Shown: piece after piece, positions 1-22,191 of the stretch
Numbering within the stretch: position 1 is the stretch's first letter
Layout: each line of letters begins with the position of its first letter
Assembly (NCBI GenBank): GCA_038207085.1
Contig: JBBRAE010000030.1
Span: 1-33,831, forward strand
Direction of reading: 5' to 3'
Origin: Armatimonadota bacterium
Lineage (GTDB): Bacteria; Armatimonadota; UBA5829; DTLH01
DNA length: 33,831 bases
Notes under the pieces: model-generated
What the model was told of the DNA's origin: nothing
The model's input: only the letters and a program-made list of their open reading frames with translations
Database searches by the model: none
Position numbers and translations under genes: made by a program

Positions 1-125
1 ACTGAGCCCTTTATTGACAAACGATCCGGCAGATTGTATACTGCTGCCATGCCAAAAGTAGTGAGGTCGGTAGTTGAAGAGGCCGACCGCGAAAGGCTTA
101 ACAAAGGGCTCAGTCCCCTTATTTT
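1..125 (+). mobile_element. Miniature RAYT-derived/REP-bounded element, copy A (left hairpin arm cut by window edge)
   Basis: 120/125 nt identical to 1063-1187 (mismatches at 53, 56, 62, 64, 66). Begins at loop ACTGAG and ends with the inverted hairpin AAAGGG-CTCAGT-CCCCTTATT. Encodes MPKVVRSVV from ATG 49 and RGRPRKA* at 78-101 in another frame. Confidence 0.75.
14..42 (+). promoter_or_regulatory. Sigma70 promoter inside element A; leaderless geometry to ATG 49
   Basis: TTGACA (14-19), 17 nt spacer, TATACT (37-42), then 6 nt to ATG. Confidence 0.8.
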
Positions 126-469
126 GGTGCGACGAGCAGTCGGGCCAGTATGGACCCTGGACCAAAGATGGACCAAGAGAGGGATATGACAAGTTTGATC
201 CTATGATAGGAATGGGCGCGGACAGTGTCTGTAGCAATTTTGACAGACAGTATATGGATGATCCCGCCAGGAAGAAGGCTTACGGTACCAATTGTCGAGC
301 GTTGAGCGACAGCCTGAGTGATTGCATCAAGAGACGGATCAAGAAGGATTCTGGTAAGAAAGCTTTTGGTAAGTATAATCTCTGCACGAACAACTGTCAG
401 GAATACGCAGATGATATCATCCAAGACTGCAAACGGGAGGCAAAGCGTGGGCAGAAGTCTAAGCGATAG
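122..469 (+). pseudogene. 5'-truncated C-terminal fragment of a polymorphic (Rhs-like) toxin, probably a papain-fold/PPPDE-like domain
   Basis: YNLCTNNCQEYAD resembles the Y-x-L-x-x-N-N-C catalytic-Cys motif of permuted papain-like domains. The frame runs into element A with no native start. It overlaps the downstream small membrane gene. Confidence 0.55.
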
Positions 470-827
470 ATCGGTGAGATTCCTGTTAATCTGGCGATAT
501 GTATGTGGTGTTACGCTTGGGATCTTGTCAGTCTTGTTCTTCGTCGTGAAGGGTGAACTAGGCCCGGAGCCTGGTTGGTATTTGTTGCTGCTAGGAGTAG
601 CGCCCACAATCATCGTTGTCATAGTCAGTAGATTGAGGAACAAGTTTTGCGTACTCTGTGCACTTGTACATGACGCTTCGTTGTTCTGTCTTTTGGCGGT
701 GTTGCTTCTTGCTTTGCCCAATTATCTTGCGTTAGTGGCCCTATCGCCACTGGCCGTGTTCCTGATAGAAGGATTGTTTCTCTGGGTGCTCTTGGGCATT
801 AATGGAACGCAAAGGCAGGCAAGATAG
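447..827 (+). CDS. Small multi-pass (about 4 TM) membrane protein, putative immunity protein
   Basis: GGGAGG (435-440) then GTG 447, in frame with ORF 318..827. Several hydrophobic segments; overlaps the toxin-fragment 3' end. Confidence 0.6.
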   Translation: MGRSLSDRSVRFLLIWRYVCGVTLGILSVLFFVVKGELGPEPGWYLLLLGVAPTIIVVIVSRLRNKFCVLCALVHDASLFCLLAVLLLALPNYLALVALSPLAVFLIEGLFLWVLLGINGTQRQAR

Positions 828-888
828 CCCTGTCGCGAACGCGCAAAGTGATGGAGTGTATGGCGTTGGCAGGGCAACCGAAGTGTGC

Positions 889-1045
889 ATGTCGTTAGTC
901 GTGCTGCTTATCGTCGTGGCTTTGCTGCCTGGCTGTGCGGCTAGGCAGGAGGGGAAGTTTACGGACGCAGTGTATGACGGGGATGTGAGGACGGCGCAGG
1001 AACTACTGAGCCAGCATCCTGGCCTGGTCAAACTTACGGGCGACC
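889..1045 (+). pseudogene. 3'-truncated lipoprotein with the start of an ankyrin-like repeat
   Basis: Hydrophobic signal with lipobox LLPG|C, then FTDAVYDGDVRTAQELLSQHPGLV (ankyrin-like), broken at the hairpin of element B. Confidence 0.5.
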
Positions 1046-1187
1046 CGTTTGTCAATAAAGGGACTGAGCCCTTTATTGACAAACGATCCGGCAGATTGTA
1101 TACTGCTGCCATGCTAAGAGTAGCGCGATCGGTAGTTGAAGAGGCCGACCGCGAAAGGCTTAACAAAGGGCTCAGTCCCCTTATTTT
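1046..1187 (+). mobile_element. Miniature RAYT-derived/REP-bounded element, copy B
   Basis: Perfect 17-bp hairpin CGTTTGTCAATAAAGGG-ACTGAG-CCCTTTATTGACAAACG (1046-1085); promoter TTGACA 1076-1081 / TATACT 1099-1104; ATG 1111 MLRVARSVV; RGRPRKA*; inverted hairpin with loop CTCAGT at 1171-1176. Confidence 0.8.
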
Positions 1188-1314
1188 CCCAATAAATCCC
1201 ATATTGCATCGCCACGTCTCTGTTGTATGCTCGGCAGGTTGTAGTTGCACCTATCAGGGTGAGTGCGACGACACAAATTGGTATGACTAGTCTAGAGATC
1301 GCTCGTAGCATCAT
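1188..1314 (-). pseudogene. 3'-truncated secreted protein, possibly the start of an amidase_6-like domain
   Basis: Signal peptide then YNRDVAMQYGIYW (resembles the YNRxxAvxYaxxW start of putative amidase domains), running into element B; GAGG upstream of the ATG. Confidence 0.45.
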
Positions 1315-1327
1315 TTTAATAACCCTC

Positions 1328-2464
1328 TTACTTGCACTCAGATATCTTCTCGATGAATGATTGAGCCAGACTTATATCCATTTGACCTTCTGGACGCGTC
1401 CATAAAGCTCTCCAATTGGAGCCTCTCTTTTCGGGTGGTACGGGATCAATCACATTGGCGCGACTCAGGTCATAAATGGCCTTGAAGCACTGTGGAGTCT
1501 TTATTATGTAGAACATCAAATGCATCGCGAACGTCCGAGCGCGACATAACTGCCCATCTGGATGATTTGCCCCTTTTTCTTCCTTGTCCGACGCTATGTA
1601 CTGCCTAGATAGCAAATCCACGCATATCCCCTCCGCCTGTGCCATATTGCCGGTATCAGCGGCGTACTCGGCACAAACCTCCAGCAGTTCAGGAGACGAT
1701 GTCGGATCATCCAGTATCCTCTTGACCAGAACTGAATTCTCTTGACATTGTACCGGATTTGCTTCACCGGTATCTTTGTCCGTCTCGAACAACAATGCCT
1801 GCAAAAAACTGGGGCTTGGGAAATCTGAGAGGAATTTCTCGATATCTGATCGGTACTGTTTTCGCGAGATTCCCATCGTGTATAGCACCCATCGCGATGA
1901 CCTCCAGACTGATGTGTCGGGTTGCGAGTGGTCTGCTATGTCCTGCAATAGAGGTATCCACTCTTTGGAAACTTGCTTTGGAAAGTGGGAGAGCTTGCGC
2001 ACAATGTCAGATGAGTCGCAAAGCTTCTCATCATAAAGCTGACGAAAGACTTTGGCAGATACATCTGATGATGGTACAAAAACGGCATTCTCTTCTACGT
2101 CTCCATCGAAGGTAAGTTTCTTACCAGGTCGGTGCAGGCTCGCTGCACGTAACTGCTCAAGTGTCTTGGATGCGTCAAGGTCTTTACTTGCTGATTGATT
2201 CAGCGACGCGACTCGCACATTCCAGCTATGTTGCGCAGATTCCCGGTGCTGCTTTTCAAAGCTGTCTGCGTTTGCCAGGTACTTCGTCAGCAGCACCTGG
2301 TATTCAGATTTTGATGCAGTCGCTCTCGACGAATTGCCTGAAGGCGCGTGTGTCTTATCTTGCCTCTTAGGAATAGCCTTCATAGCGCTGGTAACGTTGA
2401 AGGTTACCAGCAATGCAATAATGCTGAGAGATACAACGGCGATGGTCTTAATACGGTTCATCAT
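1328..2464 (-). CDS. Secreted/N-anchored hypothetical protein, 378 aa, probably helical
   Basis: Long ORF with an N-terminal signal-like hydrophobic segment; ATGA overlap with the upstream ORF stop; GGAGG upstream. Confidence 0.7.
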   Translation of the reverse strand: MMNRIKTIAVVSLSIIALLVTFNVTSAMKAIPKRQDKTHAPSGNSSRATASKSEYQVLLTKYLANADSFEKQHRESAQHSWNVRVASLNQSASKDLDASKTLEQLRAASLHRPGKKLTFDGDVEENAVFVPSSDVSAKVFRQLYDEKLCDSSDIVRKLSHFPKQVSKEWIPLLQDIADHSQPDTSVWRSSRWVLYTMGISRKQYRSDIEKFLSDFPSPSFLQALLFETDKDTGEANPVQCQENSVLVKRILDDPTSSPELLEVCAEYAADTGNMAQAEGICVDLLSRQYIASDKEEKGANHPDGQLCRARTFAMHLMFYIIKTPQCFKAIYDLSRANVIDPVPPEKRGSNWRALWTRPEGQMDISLAQSFIEKISECK

Positions 2465-3192
2465 TCGTAAGTCTCCTCCAGGATAGATACGTTCCCATCC
2501 TTATCTATCTTCAGCTTATAATCAACGGTTTTCTCTATCTCAGAAGTGCTTGGATCAGCGTCGTATGGATTCCCTGCATTGTCCAATACTCCATCATCAG
2601 CCACAGTAACCTTTACGTGGAAGTACTGGTCAGAATCGGTCATGGAATAGAATGTACTATTCAGACCAGAGACGGCTGAACCACGCTCATCATAGTATTG
2701 CTTCTGACTCAGATCCTGCCCCCATACATTGAGCCAATCATCATCTGTAATATCCATCGTAGAGACACCATTGTCAATAGACAGTGAGGCAGCGTTTACC
2801 TCGTCCTCGTCCCAGTACCAGACCTTTACAGTGACTTTGGAAGAGCTAACCGTGGTCGCATCTATGCCAGCGCAATAAAGCGCACGCTCTACCGGACCTT
2901 CAGGAGCCATCGGGTCCTCGTCCTCAACATAATCGCCAGGAACATCCATCTGAGCTTGGTCTATCGCAGCCTTCTCCTCATCAGTTAACACATCCTCAAA
3001 CAACCAGACGAGATCCCAGCACTTTACATCGAACTGCATCTCGTAGGTTTTCGTGTTGCTCGAATTCGGCCCGTACGTGAGCCTGGCAATGTATCTTCCT
3101 GGATCGCAGCTAATCTCCGATCCTGAGTAGGTAAACGTGTGACTGCCTGCACTCAAATCGAGAGAAGTCGATGTATAGATTGCACTACCAGG
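2461..3192 (-). pseudogene. 5'-truncated acidic, beta-rich (Ig-like) extracellular protein fragment
   Basis: The frame stays open upstream of TTG 3156 (…PGSAIYTSTSLDL) into the 3193 hairpin with no ATG/RBS; strongly Asp/Glu-rich. Confidence 0.55.
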
Positions 3193-3241
3193 AATAAAGG
3201 GACTGAGCCCTTTATTGGATAAAGGGGAGGGAGCCCTTTTT
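3193..3241 (+). repeat. REP-like hairpin plus a degenerate tandem copy
   Basis: AATAAAGGG-ACTGAG-CCCTTTATT (3193-3216), identical to the core hairpin of element B, followed by ATAAAGGGGAGGGAGCCCTTTTT. Confidence 0.85.
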
Positions 3242-3515
3242 ACTCCAAAAACAATCCAACATCCGCCGTCACTACAGTGTTCGGCAAGTGACCGTTCTTA
3301 TCCTGCTGACCACGAACCCCACGCTCAAAACGACAAAAACCCCAGGGTTGATGTCCCCGGAGCTTGTATGCTGCGTGATTTTGGGGAAGCGGGGGCTGGG
3401 GATTAGCTTCGGGGAGATTGGCGGGTGTCGAGGGTTTGGGTGGAGCGCACGTTTCGAGAACCTCAACGTGATTGGCTTTAGATTTGTCTGTAGTTTATAG
3501 ATTGGTGGTCGCTCG

Positions 3516-3546
3516 TCCTTCGACGGACACTTCACTGCTCAGGATG
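3516..3546. repeat. Possible second-family REP-like element downstream of uvrB
   Basis: TCCTTCGAC…GCTCAGGATG resembles the widespread CCTTCGAC-x-GCTCAGGATG extragenic repeat; single copy here. Confidence 0.35.
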
Positions 3547-3589
3547 GCGTTGCGGCTTGTCGGCACTGATCCCCTACTCGCTCCACTCA

Positions 3590-5581
3590 CTACCATTTTA
3601 CGTTTGGTAGGAGTTTTTTAATTCTGGAGATTTCGTCGCGAAGTTCGGCGGCGTGTTCGAAGTCTAGCGTCTTGGCTGATTGCTTCATTTCTCGTTCCAG
3701 GTCGGCTAGGGTTAGCATTACCTCATCCAAGGGGACGTTCTTGATGTCTTTCTTGGAGAGGCCGTAGTATTCCTTCTGGTCGGAGATGCGTTTGGACTCG
3801 ATTACGTCGCGGACGGCCTTCTTGATGGACTGAGGGGTGATGCCGTGCTCTGTGTTGTAGGCGACCTGGATCGCTCGGCGGCGGTTGGTCTCGTCGAGAG
3901 CGCGGCGCATGGAGTCGGTGACTCGGTCGGCATACATTAGCACCTTGCCTCGCTCGTTTCGGGCGGCGCGGCCGATGGTCTGGATCAGGGACGTTTCAGA
4001 TCGCAAAAACCCCTCTTTGTCGGCGTCCAGGATCGCCACGAGTGAGACCTCGGGGAGGTCCAGGCCCTCGCGGAGAAGGTTGATGCCGATCACTACGTCA
4101 TATACGCCAAGGCGGAGGTCGCGCAGGATCTCAAGGCGCTCCAAGGTCTTGATGTCCGAGTGCAGATAATGGACCTTTAGCTCAAGGTCCAGCAGATACT
4201 CGGACAGGTCCTCGGCCATGCGCTTGGTGAGGGTCGTCACCAGCACGCGCTCGCCCTGGTTGATGCGCAGGCGAATCTCCTCGATCAGGTCGTCTACCTG
4301 GCCCGCCGTCGGGCGAACCTCTACCTCGGGGTCGATCAGGCCCGTCGGGCGGATCAACTGCTCCACAAACTGTGCGCTCTCGCGGGTCTCGAACGGGCCC
4401 GGCGTCGCCGATACGAAGACGACCTGCCCTACCCGCTCGCGGAACTCGTCGAACATAAGCGGGCGGTTGTCCATCGCGCTCGGCAGGCGGAAGCCATACT
4501 CCACAAGCGTCGACTTGCGGGAACGGTCGCCGTTATACATGCCGTTTAGCTGAGGGATCGTCTGGTGCGACTCGTCGATGATGATCAGGAGGTCCTCAGG
4601 GAAGTAGTCGAGCAGAGTGTGAGGCGGGGTGCCGCGCTCACGGCCGTCGAGGAAACGTGAGTAGTTCTCGATGCCTGAGCAGAAGCCGATCTCACGCATC
4701 ATCTCCATATCGTAACGGGTGCGCTGCTCAAGGCGCTGGGCCTCTAGCAGTTTGCCCTGGCGCTTGAAGTATTCGAGCTGGGTGTCTAGCTCCTCCTCGA
4801 TCTCCAAGAGGGCGCGCTCCATCTTGTCCCAGGGGGTGATGAAGTGGCTCGCGGGGTAGATCGTGGTGCGGTCGGTGCTCTGGAGGACCTCGCCGGTGAC
4901 GGGGTTGATAACAGTGATCTTCTCGACCTCATCGCCGAAGAACTCGACGCGGGTGATGATCTCATCGTCGGCGGGCTGAACCTCGAGGATGTCGCCCTTG
5001 ACCCTGAACGTGCCGCGAGAAAGCGCCATGTCGTTGCGGGAGAACTGCATGTCGACCAGTCGGCGCAGAGTGGAGTCGCGGTCGTAGCTCTTGGCCCGCT
5101 CGAAGGTGAGCATCTGCTCAGAGTAGTTCTCAGGGGAACCCAGGCCGTAGATGGACGAGACGCTCGCGACGATTATTGTGTCACGGCGCTCCAGGACGGA
5201 CTGCGTCGCGGCGTGGCGGAGGCGGTCGATCTCATCGTTGATGGATGAGTCCTTCTCGATGAACGTATCGGTCTGAGGAATGTAGGCCTCGGGCTGGTAG
5301 TAGTCGTAGTATGAGACGAAATAGCCTACGGCGTTGTCAGGGAAGAACTCACGGAACTCACTGGCAAGCTGAGCGGCAAGGGTCTTGTTGTGCGCCATCA
5401 CAAGCGTCGGGCGCTGGACGCGCTCGATCACGTTCGCCATCGTGAAGGTCTTGCCCGAACCCGTAACGCCGATCAGAGTCTGGTACTGCTGACCCTCGTA
5501 GAGGCCCGAAACAATCTTTTCGATCGCCTTCGGCTGGTCGCCGGTCGGTTTGAAATCTGACTTAATTCTGAACTCACTCAT
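3590..5581 (-). CDS. uvrB: Excinuclease ABC subunit B
   Basis: [44 protein letters not shown] and a C-terminal UVR domain. Confidence 0.99.
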
Positions 5582-5590
5582 CGCATGTAC

Positions 5591-5619
5591 ATGATACGGG
5601 ATTTGAGATCAAAAGCCAA
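5591..5619 (-). promoter_or_regulatory. Putative uvrB promoter, near-leaderless
   Basis: Minus strand TTGGCT, 17 nt, TATCAT, then 9 nt to ATG; no SD. Confidence 0.55.
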
Positions 5620-5646
5620 GCGGCAGGGCGCGTCGGGGTGCATCCC

Positions 5647-6929
5647 TTAGTTAAGGTAAGCCCTGGCGTATTGTTTCAAGTCGGCCTCAGGATTGCTGAG
5701 TAGTAATGACCGCAGGTGTAGCATTGCCTCCGCGCCTGACTCTGACCAACACATTCCCGATTGCTTAAGTCTCATGCCTACTACCGTCTTGCAGGTGCTT
5801 TCCACCATTCCACTGCCGATGTGATAGGCGTTGGCGGTGAAGGTGGCATAAAGCATTCTGTGTTTGTTTTCGATAAAGTAGTTGAGATTGAGCCGTCGGA
5901 CCTCCTTTGAATCGTCATCGAGAGGCTTCCAAGAGCGAATTGAACGGATCACCGTTTCCACGCAGTCCGACAGCAGGTCCGTCTGACGAGCTTTCACCCA
6001 TCTCTTGGCCTTCTCGGTTCCCTCGCCAAACCATGCTCTGGCGACGGTGCCAAGATGCTCGCTTGCATGGTAGAAGTCCAATATCTGCACTCCTTTAGGA
6101 TAGTGCTGTGAAAATGAACGCCATATCCAAGCTGCACCATCGCCCAGACAAGCTACGTCACTAGCTTTCTCTACGCCTCGGTTGAAAGCTCGTGCATATA
6201 CAGACTCACCAAATGCTTCCACGCGCTCAAGAGTCGCCATATATTCCGTGCCGGTAACTTCCATTTTGCCGAGGCGCTCTCGGGTCTCGTGGATTATTCC
6301 GGTTTTTGACTCCCGAGTGCCTCCGCCACGCATTGGGACTCCCGTTCCGTCTATTCCTATGTAGAGCCGGCTCGGAGCGAGGCTAGGAACTTCGACTCTG
6401 CCAGAAAGTACCTGTGCTTGCATCTGTGTCCTTTCTTCGCCGACAGACTCCGTTATCATCTCCAGAGTGTTCTTCGATAGATGTAGACCACATAGCGCTG
6501 CGAGTTCCTTCGAGAGCCTCTCAAATGGTACCCACCATATGGCAAGACGCGCCACTCTCGTCCTCACGCCGATGCTGGTGCACAAGCTGACGTGGCGTCT
6601 GTTGTAGTAGTTCTTGAACTTGGCTATACCACCGCAACTGCAGGTTACCTCAACGCCGACATAACCCGTCCCGTGCAGTCCCGAACAACCCTCCTGAATG
6701 TCACGCTTTATCTCAGTGCCGATCTCTTCCGTAAGCTTCTCGATCTCCTCAAGCGTTCCGGGATTATCCGGCAATCTCTCCTTAAGCAGCGTCTCAAAGT
6801 GCCTCGTCAGGCGATTGATCATCTCGTCCTTGTTCTCGGGCTTCTTAGCCCGCTTTATTCGTGAAGCGAATAAAGCTCTCGCTAGCAAAGCATTATTCAC
6901 GCTCCTCGTGAATAATGCAGGCTAGGCAT
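5647..6929 (-). pseudogene. ISKra4-family DDE transposase, interrupted in codon 2 by a MITE
   Basis: Motifs IGIDGTGVP, LGDGAAWIW, ILDFYHASEHL, IGSGMVES…RLKQSGMCW. Removing 6848-6924 restores GAGGAG-ATG MPKKPENKDEM. Confidence 0.85.
6848..6922. mobile_element. 75-bp double-hairpin MITE, copy 1, TA target duplication
   Basis: TA[GCCCGCTTTATTC…GAATAATGCAGGC]TA; hairpins GCTTTATTCG-TGAAG-CGAATAAAGC and GCATTATTCACG-CTCCT-CGTGAATAATGC. Confidence 0.85.
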
Positions 6930-6973
6930 TGTATGTCTCCTCATCAGTTACTATAGATGAGGAGGCATACAAT
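6928..6973 (-). promoter_or_regulatory. RBS-sequestering hairpin of the IS transposase
   Basis: 18-bp stem with one mismatch, ATTGTATGTCTCCTCATC / GATGAGGAGGCATACAAT, covering the SD and part of the ATG; TATAGT in the loop on the minus strand. Confidence 0.7.
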
Positions 6974-7060
6974 CCAGAAATTCATTACAAATTCAGATAC
7001 TATTTCAAAAAAACTACCGCTACCATTACTTTGGGATGCACCCTTCCTACAGCAATGGTA

Positions 7061-7089
7061 TTGATTTTATTGCAAAATGGCTATATACT
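7061..7089 (+). promoter_or_regulatory. Sigma70 promoter for the STAS gene
   Basis: TTGATT, 17 nt, TATACT. Confidence 0.65.
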
Positions 7090-7218
7090 GCCAGCAAAGG
7101 AAATGCCCACTTGGTTATTGATCAGTGGCCTACTGGGCCACTCTTACCGGTTCTTTTGGGACGGATTTGCAATCCGGGCCCCTCAATCGTCTTCGACCAG
7201 GTGCTAGGAGGAAAGATT

Positions 7219-7587
7219 TTGGAGGGTATCCGACTGGAAACGAGCACTCGTGAGGTTCTTGACACCCGTGTGCTCGACGTAACTGGAGAAATCGACGTCT
7301 ACACCGCCCCGCAGTTCAAAGAGGCCGTGAACCAGTTGATTAACGCGGGTCAGATCCACATCGTTATCAATATGGAGAACGTCACATACATGGACTCAAG
7401 CGGGTTTGGAACGCTTTTGTCTGCAACCAAGCGTCTGCGACCGGAGGGTGGAAGCGTAAACTTGGTAGCCTGCAACACGGCTATCGACAGGATGCTTCGT
7501 ATCACCCGGCTGAACACCGTGTTTGGCGCGTTTCAGACTGTAGAGGAAGCGATAACAGAGATGCGGAACGCAAAGAAGACCGAGTAG
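7219..7587 (+). CDS. Anti-sigma factor antagonist (STAS domain, RsbV/SpoIIAA family)
   Basis: GEIDVYTAP and YMDSSGFG with the phospho-Ser; AGGAGG then TTG 7219. Confidence 0.92.
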   Translation: MEGIRLETSTREVLDTRVLDVTGEIDVYTAPQFKEAVNQLINAGQIHIVINMENVTYMDSSGFGTLLSATKRLRPEGGSVNLVACNTAIDRMLRITRLNTVFGAFQTVEEAITEMRNAKKTE

Positions 7588-7612
7588 GCTCGTAGATTAT
7601 GGGGAGGGCCGA

Positions 7613-8236
7613 TCAGTAGTTTCTGATTAGGCCGATGACCTTGCCGATGACGCCTGCGTCTTCCCGCTCAATTACGATTGGTTCGTAAGCGGGGTTAGAG
7701 GACACAAGGATGGCTCGGCCCTCTTCCTGATAAACGCGCTTTATGGTCGCCTCGTCGCCGACAAGCACAGCGGCGAGTTCTCCGTTTGCGGCGCGCTTCT
7801 GGGGTCGCACGATCACTATATCACCGGGCAGAACCCCATCCCCGGTCATGCTATCACCCCGCACCCTGAGCGCAAACAGGTCGGTCGACTTGCCGACCAT
7901 CTCCTCTGGCGCAGGGACATAACCCTCGATATTTTCAATGGCTGGGATTGGAATCCCAGCGGCGATTGTGCCGACAATGGGCACATCAACAGAGCCCTGA
8001 CTTTTAGGAGCAACTACCCCGAGCACGTGAATGCCTCTTGAAGTCCGTTCGCGCTCTATCCACCCTTTTCGCTCCAGGGCGTCGAGATGCACCGTCACCC
8101 CGCGCAGGCTCGATATGCCAAGCGCCGCGCCGATCTCCCTGATCGAAGGCGGAAACCCGCGCTCAGCGGAGAAGTTCACTATGAACTCCAGCACCTCTCG
8201 CTGCCTGGCCGTAAGTTTTCGGTTCACTCCTGTCAT
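7613..8236 (-). CDS. lexA: SOS repressor LexA
   Basis: LTARQREVL…PPSIREI wHTH, IAAG cleavage site, GDSM catalytic Ser, ATIKR catalytic Lys; start placed at 8236 from promoter position. Confidence 0.97.
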   Translation of the reverse strand: MTGVNRKLTARQREVLEFIVNFSAERGFPPSIREIGAALGISSLRGVTVHLDALERKGWIERERTSRGIHVLGVVAPKSQGSVDVPIVGTIAAGIPIPAIENIEGYVPAPEEMVGKSTDLFALRVRGDSMTGDGVLPGDIVIVRPQKRAANGELAAVLVGDEATIKRVYQEEGRAILVSSNPAYEPIVIEREDAGVIGKVIGLIRNY

Positions 8237-8242
8237 AGGCCC

Positions 8243-8271
8243 ATTATATACTAGACAATGGTCTACGTCAA
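8243..8271 (-). promoter_or_regulatory. lexA promoter (leaderless) with embedded palindrome TAGAC-N4-GTCTA (8252-8265)
   Basis: TTGACG, 17 nt, TATAAT, 6 nt to ATG; the palindrome occupies the spacer. Confidence 0.8.
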
Positions 8272-8290
8272 CGCCGCGTGTCACGCTTTA

Positions 8291-8365
8291 GCCAGCTTTA
8301 TTCGCTTCACGAATAAAGCTCTCGCTAACAGAGCATTATTCACGCTACTCGTGAATAATGCGGGT
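8291..8365. mobile_element. 75-bp double-hairpin MITE, copy 2, TA-flanked
   Basis: Same length and structure as 6848-6922; TA at 8289-8290 and 8366-8367. Confidence 0.85.
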
Positions 8366-8440
8366 TAGTTTCCTCACGCCGTAAGCAGGGTAACTCGATA
8401 ATATGATGAGTAAAAGACGCCTATGGGTGGAGACTATGAT

Positions 8441-9562
8441 ATGAGAGGAATACGGGTCGGCAAAATAGCAGGATTTGAGATCAGTATAGACTGGAGCTGG
8501 CTTATTGTCCTGTTTCTTGTTATATACAGCCTCGGAGGCTCTGTCTTTCCGAGGTCACATCCCGAACTAAGCGCCACCGCGAACTGGTCCATCAGTGTTA
8601 TCGCCGCTCTGCTCCTGTTCGTTTCGGTGCTTGCCCATGAGTTGATGCACAGCGTGGTAGGACGCCGTTACGGCATCGACATCAAGGGGATTACGCTGTT
8701 TATCTTCGGCGGTGTATCGCAGACCAAAGGCGAGCCGGAAAGCCCCAAGGTGGAGTTCTGGATGGCCATTGCGGGGCCGCTGACGAGCGTCGCCATTGGG
8801 CTCGCGTTCCATGCGCTAACCTTCGCAGGACGAGCCGTTGTATGGCCTCCGGCGATTCTCGCGGTCACTGAATATCTGGCATGGATCAACATAGTGCTCG
8901 CGATATTCAATATGATCCCGGGGTTCCCGCTCGACGGTGGGCGGGTGCTCCGCTCGATCATCTGGGGGGCTACAGGAAACCTTGAGAGATCAACGCGGTA
9001 TGCCTCCTACATTGGGCAGGGGTTTGGGTACCTGCTGATGGGCTTAGGCTTCTTCAGTATATTGGTCGGCGGAATAATTGGAGGTATATGGTTCATATTC
9101 ATAGGCTGGTTCCTCGCTGGCGCGGCTCGACAGAGCTATGAGCAGGTGAGGTTGAAAGAAGCGCTTACGGGCATTGGGGTCGAGACTGTCATGACCGAGG
9201 ATGTCCCGACGGTTTCCCCGGAGCTCTCGCTCGATGATTTCGTGCGTGACTATCTCATGCGATACCAATACGCGAGTTACCCAGTGGTCGAGGACGGACA
9301 GGTGCGCGGAATGGCAGGCATCGACCAGGTGAGAGCGATCCCGCGAGATCAATGGAGAATGATGAGTGTGGCTGACATTACGGAACCCGTCGACGCCGAG
9401 GGCATGGTGAGCAAGGAGGACGACGCCTGGGACGCGCTCGTGAAGCTCTCCAGCGAAGACAAGCGCCGACTGCTCGTGATGCACGACCGAACACTCGACG
9501 GCACCGTCAGCCAGGAAAGCATTCTAAGGCTCGTAAGAATGAGAACCCAGCTCGGAGTCTAA
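8441..9562 (+). CDS. Site-2 protease (M50) with CBS domains
   Basis: HELMH zinc motif, AIAGP, FNMIPGFPLDGGR, C-terminal CBS pair; start 8441 after GGAG (8423 is an alternative). Confidence 0.95.
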   Translation: MRGIRVGKIAGFEISIDWSWLIVLFLVIYSLGGSVFPRSHPELSATANWSISVIAALLLFVSVLAHELMHSVVGRRYGIDIKGITLFIFGGVSQTKGEPESPKVEFWMAIAGPLTSVAIGLAFHALTFAGRAVVWPPAILAVTEYLAWINIVLAIFNMIPGFPLDGGRVLRSIIWGATGNLERSTRYASYIGQGFGYLLMGLGFFSILVGGIIGGIWFIFIGWFLAGAARQSYEQVRLKEALTGIGVETVMTEDVPTVSPELSLDDFVRDYLMRYQYASYPVVEDGQVRGMAGIDQVRAIPRDQWRMMSVADITEPVDAEGMVSKEDDAWDALVKLSSEDKRRLLVMHDRTLDGTVSQESILRLVRMRTQLGV

Positions 9563-19917: not shown

Positions 19918-20419
19918 TACACAACCCACGGAGGGACACTTGTTAGAGAGAACCGGACACCCAGGGATCGTGCTTGCGAGGCTCGATGATATGGTCAGAT
20001 GGGCGGAGGAGTCTTCGCTTTGGCCGCTGATGATGGGGCTCGCCTGCTGCGCCATCGAGATGATGGCAACCGCCGCGTCACGCTTCGACATCTCCCGCTT
20101 CGGCATGGAGGTCTTTCGGGCCTCACCAAGACAGGCGGATCTGATGATCGTTGCGGGCCGGGCATCGATCAAGATGGTCCCGATAATCCGGCGGCTCTAC
20201 GACCAGATGTCCGACCCCAAGTGGGTGGTATCGATGGGCGCGTGTGCTTCAACGTCGGGGGTTTTCAGCAACTACGCGATTATCAACGGGATAGACAAGA
20301 TCATCCCTGTCGATATCTACGTGCCGGGGTGTCCGCCGAACCCCGAACTGCTGCTTGACGGGCTCATCAAACTTCAGCAAAAGATCAGGCAGGGGGTCCC
20401 TCCCGGACAGAGGCCATGA
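19910..20419 (+). CDS. nuoB: NADH-quinone oxidoreductase subunit B
   Basis: GLACCAIEM (tandem Cys of cluster N2), SPRQAD, VPGCPP. Confidence 0.96.
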
Positions 20420-22191
20420 ACAACGATCTCATCACCAGAGATAACATTTCCCAGGTCACGGACGAACTCGCAGGGCAGATTGCCTCACCGGAGAATCGCG
20501 AGGTAACGCTTTACGCCGCGCCGGACGCGATCTTGCCGCTTTGCCAGGAACTGCGTGACAGGCGCGAGCTTGGCTACAATCTGTTGTCGGATATCACCGC
20601 CGTCGACCACTACGGCAGCGAGCCGAGGTTCGAGCTTGTCTACAGAATGTACGCGATACCCGATAACCGCAGGCTCTGGATCAAGTCCCGAATTGAGATC
20701 GACCAAAACGTCGAGAGCGTTACTCCGATTTGGAAGAATGCCGACTGGCTGGAGCGCGAAGTATTTGATCTTATGGGAGTGAAGTTCGACAACCACCCCA
20801 ACCTTCGTAGACTCCTGATGCCGACGCCGTGGATCGGTCATCCACTCAGAAAAGACCATCCAATCGGCGGCGAAGAGGTTCAGTTCACATTCAACAAAGA
20901 CGATATTATCAGCCAGGGTGACTTTTACAGCGAGCACCTCGAAGGTATGGACCTGCGAGGCTACGTCGAGAACGGCGACGTGATCGAAACCGAAGCCGGG
21001 GCTCGAAGGATGGCACTCTACGCCGGTGACGGCAAGCTTGTGATGAACATGGGCCCGCAGCACCCGAGCACGCACGGGGTACTGCGCGTCATTCTCGCGA
21101 TGGAAGGCGAGACGATCATCGACGCCGACATCGATATAGGCTACGTCCATACCGGCATCGAAAAACAGGCTGAACAGCTGATATATCAGCAGACGCTTAC
21201 GCTCACCGACCGGATGGACTACGTCGTTCCGCTGATGTGCAACCTCGCCTACGTGCTCCCGATCGAGAAGATGCTCGGAGTCGAGATCCCGCCAAAGGCC
21301 AAGTATGTCCGAGTGCTCCTGAACGAGCTCACACGAATATCCAGCCACCTGATCTGGCTCGGCACTCACGGCTTGGAGCTTGGGGCGATGTCGATGCTCC
21401 TATATGGCTTCACCGACAGAGAGAAGATCCTAGACATATTCGAGCTCTGTTCAGGCCAGCGCATGATGACGAGCTACATCAACATCGGCGGCATCCGCGA
21501 CGACATCCCCGAGGGGTTCAGGGCGCTTGTAAAAGACTTTATCGAATACTTCCCTGGGCGGCTCAAGGACTATCACGCGCTTCTGACGAACAACCCGATC
21601 TGGCTCGAACGCACGAAGGGTATAGGATATCTGAGCCTGAAAGATGCGCTCGACTACGGCGTGACGGGGCCGCTACTTCGCGCCGCTGGGATGGAATGGG
21701 ACGTCCGAAAGGCGTGGCCTTACGCGGGCTATGAAGAGTTTGATTTCGATATCCCAACGGGCGAGAACAGTGACGTATATGACCGTTACCTCGTGCGGAT
21801 GGAGGAAATGAGCCAAAGCCTGAGAATCGTCGAGCAGGCGCTGGCCAAGATCACCGACGGGCCGTACCGCATTGAAGACTACAAGATAGTCCTGCCCCCG
21901 AGGCAGAGACTCGATGTGAGTATGGAGTCGCTGATTCATCACTTCCTACTGTCTACCCACGGGTTTAAGGTGCCTGTTGGTGACGCCTACGTGAGCGTCG
22001 AAGGGCCAAGGGGAGAAACCGGCTTCTATATCGCAAGCGACGGCACAGAGAAGCCTTACAGGATGCACATGAGACCGGCGTCGTTCTCGGCGCTTCAGGC
22101 GTTTCCGTTAATGTCGCGCGGACACCTTATCGCCGACATTGTAGCGGTGCTTGGGAGCATCGACATGGTTATGGGGGAAGTCGACAGATAA
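20416..22191 (+). CDS. nuoCD: Fused NADH-quinone oxidoreductase subunit C/D
   Basis: [11 protein letters not shown]…HPNLRR…GHPLRKD (C part); [12 protein letters not shown]…GEVDR (D part); no NiFe CxxC motifs. Confidence 0.95.

Follow-up and report, generated by a model that had tools for sequence, protein, structure and literature searches.

The left edge of contig JBBRAE010000030.1 (assembly GCA_038207085.1) from an Armatimonadota bacterium, analysed here over its 33,831 nt (the window), raises the question of how fragments of several genes come to stand in a row with their broken ends at small hairpins. A first-pass annotation of this DNA had answered with a candidate cassette-capture system driven by REP-associated tyrosine transposases (RAYTs; REP, repetitive extragenic palindromic), in which arbitrary gene fragments are taken up between hairpins and banked, for example as immunity genes. 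We find that all four hairpins concerned are carried by one small non-coding repeat, which we name element E, and that the pieces between its copies come from two loci with no relation to each other, an Rhs toxin locus (segment A) and a three-gene cluster (segment B). The account that we favour for positions 1-3241, to which we give about as much credence as doubt, is insertion of E into a decaying, acquired, AT-richer island beside uvrB, followed by recombination between the E copies. A RAYT-driven capture system is not needed for the observed layout and is unsupported. The copies of E and the two segments are as follows, with L and R denoting the left and right hairpins of E.

1-3241, probable edge of a horizontally acquired island with the copies of E, at the left edge of the contig and beside uvrB
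1-125, plus strand, E copy 1 (E1), with a promoter-like site at 14-42 and the R hairpin (100-123), which precedes a T-run and is terminator-like at 104-120
126-1045, segment A, genes on the plus strand
1046-1187, plus strand, E copy 2 (E2), 142 bp, or 134 bp if its start is placed at 1054
1188-3192, segment B, genes on the minus strand
3193-3241, plus strand, E mini copy, 49 bp, two hairpins, with the promoter and the middle part absent

Element E and its copies

The 15-mer AAAGGGACTGAGCCC, allowing up to two mismatches, occurs at four sites in the window, 106-120 on the minus strand, 1057-1071 on the plus strand, 1168-1182 on the minus strand and 3196-3210 on the plus strand, against a chance expectation of 0.14, and none of 100 shuffles reached four, which confirms that the hairpins noticed at the segment ends are real. 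Similarly, the motif AAGGG-N5-8-CCCTT has five occurrences in the 33.8 kb, every one of them within 104-3238. Alignment of 1-125 with 1063-1187 gave 96% identity with five differences, all at 53-66. In E2, hairpins L (1054-1077, loop ACTGAG) and R (1162-1185, loop CTCAGT) form the 24-nt inverted ends of the element and are 92% complementary; the full L hairpin spans 1046-1085 with a 17-bp stem around the ACTGAG loop, and is followed by a central stem-loop and then by the R hairpin, after which TTATTTT is found. The mini copy consists of the exact 25-nt L hairpin (3193-3217) and, directly after it, a diverged hairpin, AAAGGG-GAGGGAG-CCCTTT, ending at 3241. All three copies stand in direct orientation, and each segment has CTCAGT on its left and ACTGAG on its right because E copies with inverted ends are directly repeated. 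Thus the hairpin pairs described around each segment are present, but they are not free-standing and represent the two ends of a directly repeated element. The flanks of the individual copies are unrelated to one another, and the left flank of E1 lies off the contig. E1 is without its left hairpin arm, since the contig opens with the first base of the loop of L1 (ACTGAG); this start points to the assembly having broken at the palindrome or repeat, or else to structural polymorphism at this position, and a contig break inside E is expected for a multi-copy repeat.

When the whole of E is folded as a single strand, L is predicted to pair with R to give one long hairpin, with -64.3 kcal/mol (z -7.9) for the minus strand and -54.5 kcal/mol (z -5.3) for the plus strand. 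By its sequence, the architecture of E is like that of REPINs or of miniature inverted-repeat transposable elements (MITEs), and to that extent the REP side of the first-pass annotation's idea is supported. E also contains a rightward sigma-70 promoter-like site, TTGACA-17-TATACT, matching 11 of 12 consensus positions (1076-1104 in E2, 14-42 in E1); this score was reached in 21 of 20,000 shuffles of E, and two of the three sites scoring 11/12 in the window are in E. A small RNA derived from E was considered and rejected, as the candidate intervals 49-128 and 1111-1190 fold no better than shuffles (z -1.2 and -0.4). The five differences between E1 and E2 fall within 14 nt (53-66 against 1115-1128); in E1 they create a GAGG placed 7 nt before the TTG (74) of the open reading frame (ORF) that runs into the toxin fragment described below, a GAGG that E2 does not have, and in the frame of an ATG located 6 nt downstream of the -10 box AGG becomes CGA through two of the five changes, both codons encoding Arg.

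The search for further copies of the hairpin, which had been proposed as a check on the capture idea, returned nothing: the hairpin 22-mer gave no match in 185,579 species genomes, and blastn of 1-3300 gave none in the plasmid and phage collections. Rfam, searched with 1-9000 at E<=1, yielded only a chance snoRNA match (E 0.32) outside element E, and a text search of the literature with hairpin 12-mers retrieved only papers on unrelated topics. An 18-mer of the hairpin, with up to three mismatches, was not found in L001, the related locus described in the next section. The E repeat family is therefore undescribed in the genome, plasmid, phage and Rfam collections searched.

Gene fragments in segments A and B

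Both segments have a lower GC content (0.512 for A and 0.481 for B) than the remainder of the window (0.566). The value for segment B is below the minimum, and that for segment A below the 5th percentile, of all intervals of the same size in that remainder. The segments are oppositely oriented and their cargo is of conflict or cell-envelope type, so that in composition, orientation and content they are as the first-pass annotation had described them. The genes and gene fragments that they carry are listed here.

125-469, plus strand, 3' part of a toxin gene of the Rhs family (toxin domain of the C-terminus, LRAT/H-box-NC-like), from its relatives and their alignment
447-827, plus strand, intact ORF of 126 aa with four hydrophobic stretches, overlapping the end of the toxin fragment by 23 bp and preceded by a GGGAGG ribosome site
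889-1045, plus strand, 5' fragment of a lipoprotein gene, its first ~50 codons, with an LLPGC lipobox
1188-1314, minus strand, 5' fragment of a gene for an Amidase_6-type secreted protein, 42 codons, cut at E2
1328-2464, minus strand, intact gene for a 378-aa protein with an N-terminal membrane anchor and then an alpha-helical repeat (armadillo/HEAT-like)
2461-3192, minus strand, 3' fragment of a secreted-protein gene, 243 codons, with its break exactly at the L3 hairpin foot

The break at the right end of segment B is the most clearly defined. The 243-codon fragment, previously noted as an acidic protein without a start, is covered over 100% of its length by each of four proteins of 574-998 aa (P0015-P0018), with 76% identity to P0015 (584 aa) and 47-53% identity to the other three. 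The homology begins at the hairpin foot, where the window sequence '...PGSAIYTSTSLDL' aligns with '...PTGSPIYTSTSLDL' of P0015 near residue 340; the window residues before this point are encoded by the hairpin, through which the frame stays open with no start before the TTG at 3156. At the other end of the segment, the amidase stump shows 41% identity (pairwise E 4e-5) to residues 10-41 of a 389-aa Amidase_6 protein in L001 and the alignment stops at the last codon before E2, as expected of the amidase-like protein without an end that had been described; no match to the stump was found in Atlas. The gene between these two fragments is intact, in agreement with the earlier description, its 378-aa product being full length against relatives of 362-388 aa. 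Its homologs are P0001-P0003 and the product of L001 1083-2234, with 99% identity to P0001 (on a 3,542-bp contig) and 49% to P0002. The predicted structure (predicted local distance difference test, pLDDT, 80) is that of a helical-repeat protein with a membrane anchor, and it had no specific match; none of 500 matches in the fold search reached E<=0.001, all being generic helical repeats.

L001, the one confirmed locus among 26 pattern matches, is a contig (4,076 bp) from the metagenome-assembled genome of an uncultured member of the Armatimonadetes. It encodes, in this order, the C-terminus of a large protein, a 383-aa homolog of the 378-aa protein (32% identity) and the 389-aa protein with its Amidase_6 domain (E 5.7e-16). 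For P0015 and P0002 the same longest contig, of 10,104 bp, is reported, which fits the two lying on one shared contig. These comparisons indicate that segment B comes from the interior of a conserved three-gene cluster, as a contiguous, inverted piece whose ends fall near residue 340 of gene 1, the large secreted-protein gene, and at residue 42 of gene 3, the amidase gene. Behind the cluster, L001 carries a decayed ORF for an IS200-like Y1 transposase (3500-3727, 75 aa, Y1_Tnp E 2e-19), and the last bases of the contig (4050-4076) encode MTSKLR, matching residues 19-24 of P0018, so that the large-protein gene is probably present once more beyond the contig end.

Segment A begins with the toxin fragment, for which eight relatives were found besides its own record. 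In five of the eight, the ~90 residues that align form the C-terminal end of a longer protein. Two of these five, P0007 and P0008, have RHS repeats that exceed the Pfam cut-off, and in P0007 an Rhs_assc_core match above the NCBIfam cut-off (49.8 against 32.5 bits) ends at residue 388, just before the matching region; P0005 and P0012 have sub-threshold RHS matches and P0009 has none. The alignment shows that the relatives extend upstream through DPxG...CxRCWR...H-x-F-x-WCD, whereas the window copy begins at (F)WCD, exactly at the end of E1, with ~30 residues of the domain gone, including a conserved His. The toxin-like fragment is thus without a start of its own, as had been noted. The only in-frame start is the TTG at 74, inside E1, and hence the called 131-aa protein P0004 is a chimera of E1 and the toxin stump, a point of practical use for annotation. 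The Cys of the CFG motif is kept in all eight relatives and is Ala in the window copy, a change that fits decay of the stump. Pfam gave LRAT and PPPDE matches below threshold only. A model of the complete natural domain (P0010) reached a pLDDT of 80.9, and its fold search placed PLAAT3, H-REV107, Aichivirus 2A and the type VI secretion effector TseH on top, with template modelling (TM) scores of 0.40-0.55 and none of 180 matches at E<=0.001; on the model, an H-box/NC papain-like toxin is a consistent lead.

The intact ORF downstream of the toxin fragment (447-827) has no family in Pfam or NCBIfam. The lipoprotein stump that closes segment A matches Ank families in Atlas (0.87-0.90), with no match in Pfam or, by sequence, in PDB, and possibly derives from an ankyrin-repeat protein. 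Its frame continues through E2 into the antisense strand of segment B, up to a stop at 1288-1290, and this edge is a probable mid-gene cut. Consequently, the statement that all four segment edges cut genes is borne out at three of them (toxin, acidic protein and amidase) and is probable for the lipoprotein. At the E2 junction, the start of the lipoprotein gene lies on the left and the start of the amidase gene on the right, facing each other.

Origin of the layout

The facing starts of two different genes on the flanks of E2 rule out a simple insertion of E2 into one gene, an ordinary MITE insertion being the outcome that the first-pass annotation had set against its own proposal. A second simple scheme, circular permutation, in which each segment would be an opened circle and rejoining its ends would make one gene of the 5' and the 3' stump, is also ruled out: in segment A the relatives of the toxin carry Rhs repeats upstream and not a lipoprotein signal, and in segment B the N-termini of P0015-P0018 are unlike the amidase stump, which matches the start of a separate Amidase_6 gene.

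In the history that we favour, every step of which we infer, copies of E would have inserted into dispensable acquired genes, where there would be no selection against insertion; in dispensable DNA that, as here, is ~90% coding, random insertions are expected to cut genes. Recombination between direct copies of E, or breakage at the hairpins, would then have deleted the intervening DNA and left gene stumps ending exactly at E. If one E lay in the lipoprotein gene and another in the amidase gene, a single deletion between the two would generate the E2 junction with its two facing starts. As a side effect, the strong promoter-like site of E1 probably drives transcription of the 447-827 gene, the candidate orphan immunity gene of segment A.

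Several observations weigh against this history. It needs at least four insertions and at least two deletions within a few kb, more than the two 'capture' events of the alternative, while the visible E amounts to two full copies, the first of them cut by the contig start, and one mini copy, and the missing halves of the cut genes were not found anywhere. The hairpin sequence at the 3192/3193 junction is confined to the inner 25 nt; the outer stem of 8 nt that E2 has is missing, and the junction is not a clean element terminus. In addition, the promoter-like site of E2 points in the antisense direction into segment B, and the 447-827 gene is a candidate for orphan immunity from its position only.

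The most plausible form of the capture idea is that chunks bounded by E are themselves mobile, a transposase supplied in trans using the outer ends of two E copies or reading through one end, in which case mid-gene cuts arise by construction; we consider it unlikely. Such mobility would involve fewer events than insertion with deletion, and would account for segments A and B being contiguous native pieces from unrelated loci, with opposite gene orientation, each cut exactly at E at both ends, for the direct orientation of all three E copies, and for the better folding of E on one strand, as in substrates of single-strand transposases. Against it, no Y1/HUH transposase or integrase was detected among the 25 large ORFs of the window (Y1_Tnp, E<=1e-5) or nine further ORFs (E<=1); of the 34 scanned, the only transposase is of ISLre2 type (5647-6900). 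This result, the lack of a GTAG/CTAC tetranucleotide at three of the four hairpin feet and the lack of matches to the hairpin in the collections searched leave the RAYT-driven capture and banking of the first-pass annotation unsupported, in spite of the REPIN-like architecture of E. The promoter-like site of E points in the sense direction into segment A and in the antisense direction into segment B, so that it is no consistent cassette promoter. Nor is there a second locus or strain with movement, the hairpin is absent from the species genomes searched, and the third E copy is merely a 49-bp mini element. A more specific version, that an HUH-type, hairpin-recognising, single-strand enzyme encoded elsewhere moves E-bounded chunks and deposits foreign pieces of conflict loci serially beside uvrB, is in our judgement quite improbable. 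Eukaryotic Helitrons are well known to capture arbitrary gene fragments in a hairpin-directed manner, a process that to our knowledge is not known to build arrays in bacteria; if this version is true, the locus would hold a bacterial counterpart of Helitron-style gene-fragment capture, in which orphan immunity genes could stay expressed from the promoter brought by each element. By contrast, if the ordinary reading of insertion and recombination is true, the locus is not a new principle and would be a tidy case of a palindromic repeat breaking and trimming acquired toxin/immunity and cell-envelope loci, in which E may keep an orphan immunity gene transcribed.

Whether the array could be an artefact also has to be weighed. 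E could be a multi-copy repeat inserted in several genes, with the wrong flanks joined across E2 by the assembler, and the contig does end inside E; E2 shares 66 and 57 nt with E1 on either side of the five differences, and short k-mers could not link its flanks. However, the five copy-specific differences in the middle of E2 permit resolution with long k-mers or read pairs, each junction between a stump and E would be real regardless, and an assembler would not be misled by a repeat as short as the 25-nt hairpin at 3193, where gene 1 is nevertheless cut and its 5' part is absent from the other side, which implies at least one real rearrangement. We judge an assembly chimera a rather poor bet, only slightly less probable than mobile chunks. 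C-terminal displacement of the Rhs type, in which incoming modules displace older ones by homology-facilitated illegitimate recombination and E would be a passive spacer, is a mechanism described in PMC5361080, and segment A has the classic orphan layout of a toxin 3' end with an intact downstream gene. Displacement leaves the two 5' stumps, of the lipoprotein and the amidase, unexplained, as well as the position of all four breaks at the feet of E hairpins; segment B is not an Rhs module, and the break in the toxin gene falls within the toxin domain, whereas such recombination uses the conserved Rhs core. We regard it as very unlikely. An integron-like cassette array with attC-type sites and no nearby integrase, or an immunity array like rAID, scarcely deserves belief, although the 134-142-bp, highly similar, imperfect palindromes between cargo segments, with their strand-biased folding, would suit either, and 10.1101/471110 describes rAID-1 arrays in which orphan immunity genes are accompanied by repetitive intergenic sequence and a tyrosine recombinase. 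Here the segments break genes at both ends where whole-gene cassettes would be expected, each contains two or three genes or stumps, and no integrase lies within the window. No RYYYAAC...GTTRRRY core pair of the attC consensus brackets E on either strand, and none has a spacing of 50-140 nt in both copies; on the plus strand RYYYAAC occurs at 96 and 1158, and the sole GTTRRRY within 1-3300 is at 301.

Neighbouring genes and known systems

To the right of the island the window returns to core DNA, the border of which is a terminator-like hairpin downstream of uvrB.

3337-3365, minus strand, terminator-like hairpin of 11 pairs followed by a T-run, downstream of uvrB
3590-5581, minus strand, uvrB
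5647-6900, minus strand, ISLre2-type (UPF0236) transposase ORF, adjoining uvrB and the sole mobile-element gene among the 25 large ORFs

The possibility that the E hairpins serve as the uvrB terminator was ruled out, as uvrB has its own 11-pair terminator-like hairpin at 3337-3365, and right of 3365 uvrB and then core genes are found. No tRNA gene is present in the 33.8-kb window, and a tRNA integration site was therefore dropped as an explanation for the island. A second palindromic repeat family occurs in two copies of 81 nt (6845-6925 and 8288-8368, 86% identical), each with two hairpins with AT-rich stems, the loop of the first hairpin being TGAAG in one copy and its reverse complement, CTTCA, in the other. 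Unlike E, this family respects gene boundaries: both copies are intergenic and flank the STAS and lexA genes. The called start of the ISLre2-type transposase overlaps the first copy. The third promoter-like site of the window scoring at least 11/12, TTGACG-17-TATAAT at 8271 on the minus strand, sits where the lexA gene has been called to start (8284, minus strand), and the true start of lexA may be further in. Further along, a fused NuoC-NuoD gene (30-kDa and 49-kDa subunits, 20416-22191) is found inside an NADH dehydrogenase cluster, with a NuoG-like gene directly after it and no NuoE or NuoF in between.

Composite transposons, ISCR/IS91 elements and Helitrons move DNA between their ends or by read-through of one end, and MITE composites may be set beside them. 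The chunks described here resemble their products in having arbitrary mid-gene ends bounded by hairpin-bearing element ends, and differ in that no movement, enzyme or second copy of a chunk is in evidence. From IS200/IS605 elements, which have similar subterminal hairpins in one orientation at both ends and are cleaved at a fixed offset, E differs in that its L and R loops are reverse complements (ACTGAG and CTCAGT), its ends being inverted and not direct. The Bacteroidales rAID-1 immunity arrays (10.1101/471110) consist of whole genes with repetitive intergenic sequence and a tyrosine recombinase. The present locus shares with them and with integrons an array of cargo with repetitive, structured intergenic sites, skewed GC and conflict-type content, but here the genes are cut, no recombinase is seen in the window and E lacks the pair of attC core sites.

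PMC5361080 also describes orphaned rhs 3' regions that stand in strings, as well as orphan immunity gene arrays. Segment A is similar in that a start-less toxin 3' end and an intact small gene lie together in AT-richer acquired DNA; its break, however, is located inside the toxin domain at a hairpin repeat, and its neighbour, segment B, is not a toxin module.

The closest structural resemblance of E is to REPINs and MITEs. REPINs consist of two inverted palindromic units with a spacer, predicted to form a single long hairpin; they are overwhelmingly extragenic and present in tens to hundreds of copies, and in SBW25 no more than 14 of 1,067 16-mers overlapped genes (PMC3116915). E is similarly short, non-coding and repeated, with an inverted palindromic doublet that folds into one hairpin. 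It differs in being seen in three copies in the 33.8-kb contig, each abutting gene stumps, in its AT-rich stems and in its long spacer (~76-84 nt) with a promoter-like site. The GTAG/CTAC tetranucleotide, conserved at the foot of REP hairpins, is absent from the flanks of three of the four hairpins, a single CTAC being found 8 nt left of L3, and no RAYT, a gene that REPs usually flank, is encoded in the window. Judged on these sequence features, membership of E in the REPIN-RAYT family is unproven. The Correia elements of Neisseria are promoter-bearing MITEs. E is like them in being an element of ~100-150 bp with inverted ends that could supply a hairpin and, as predicted, an outward promoter, and is set apart from them by termini that are themselves palindromic.

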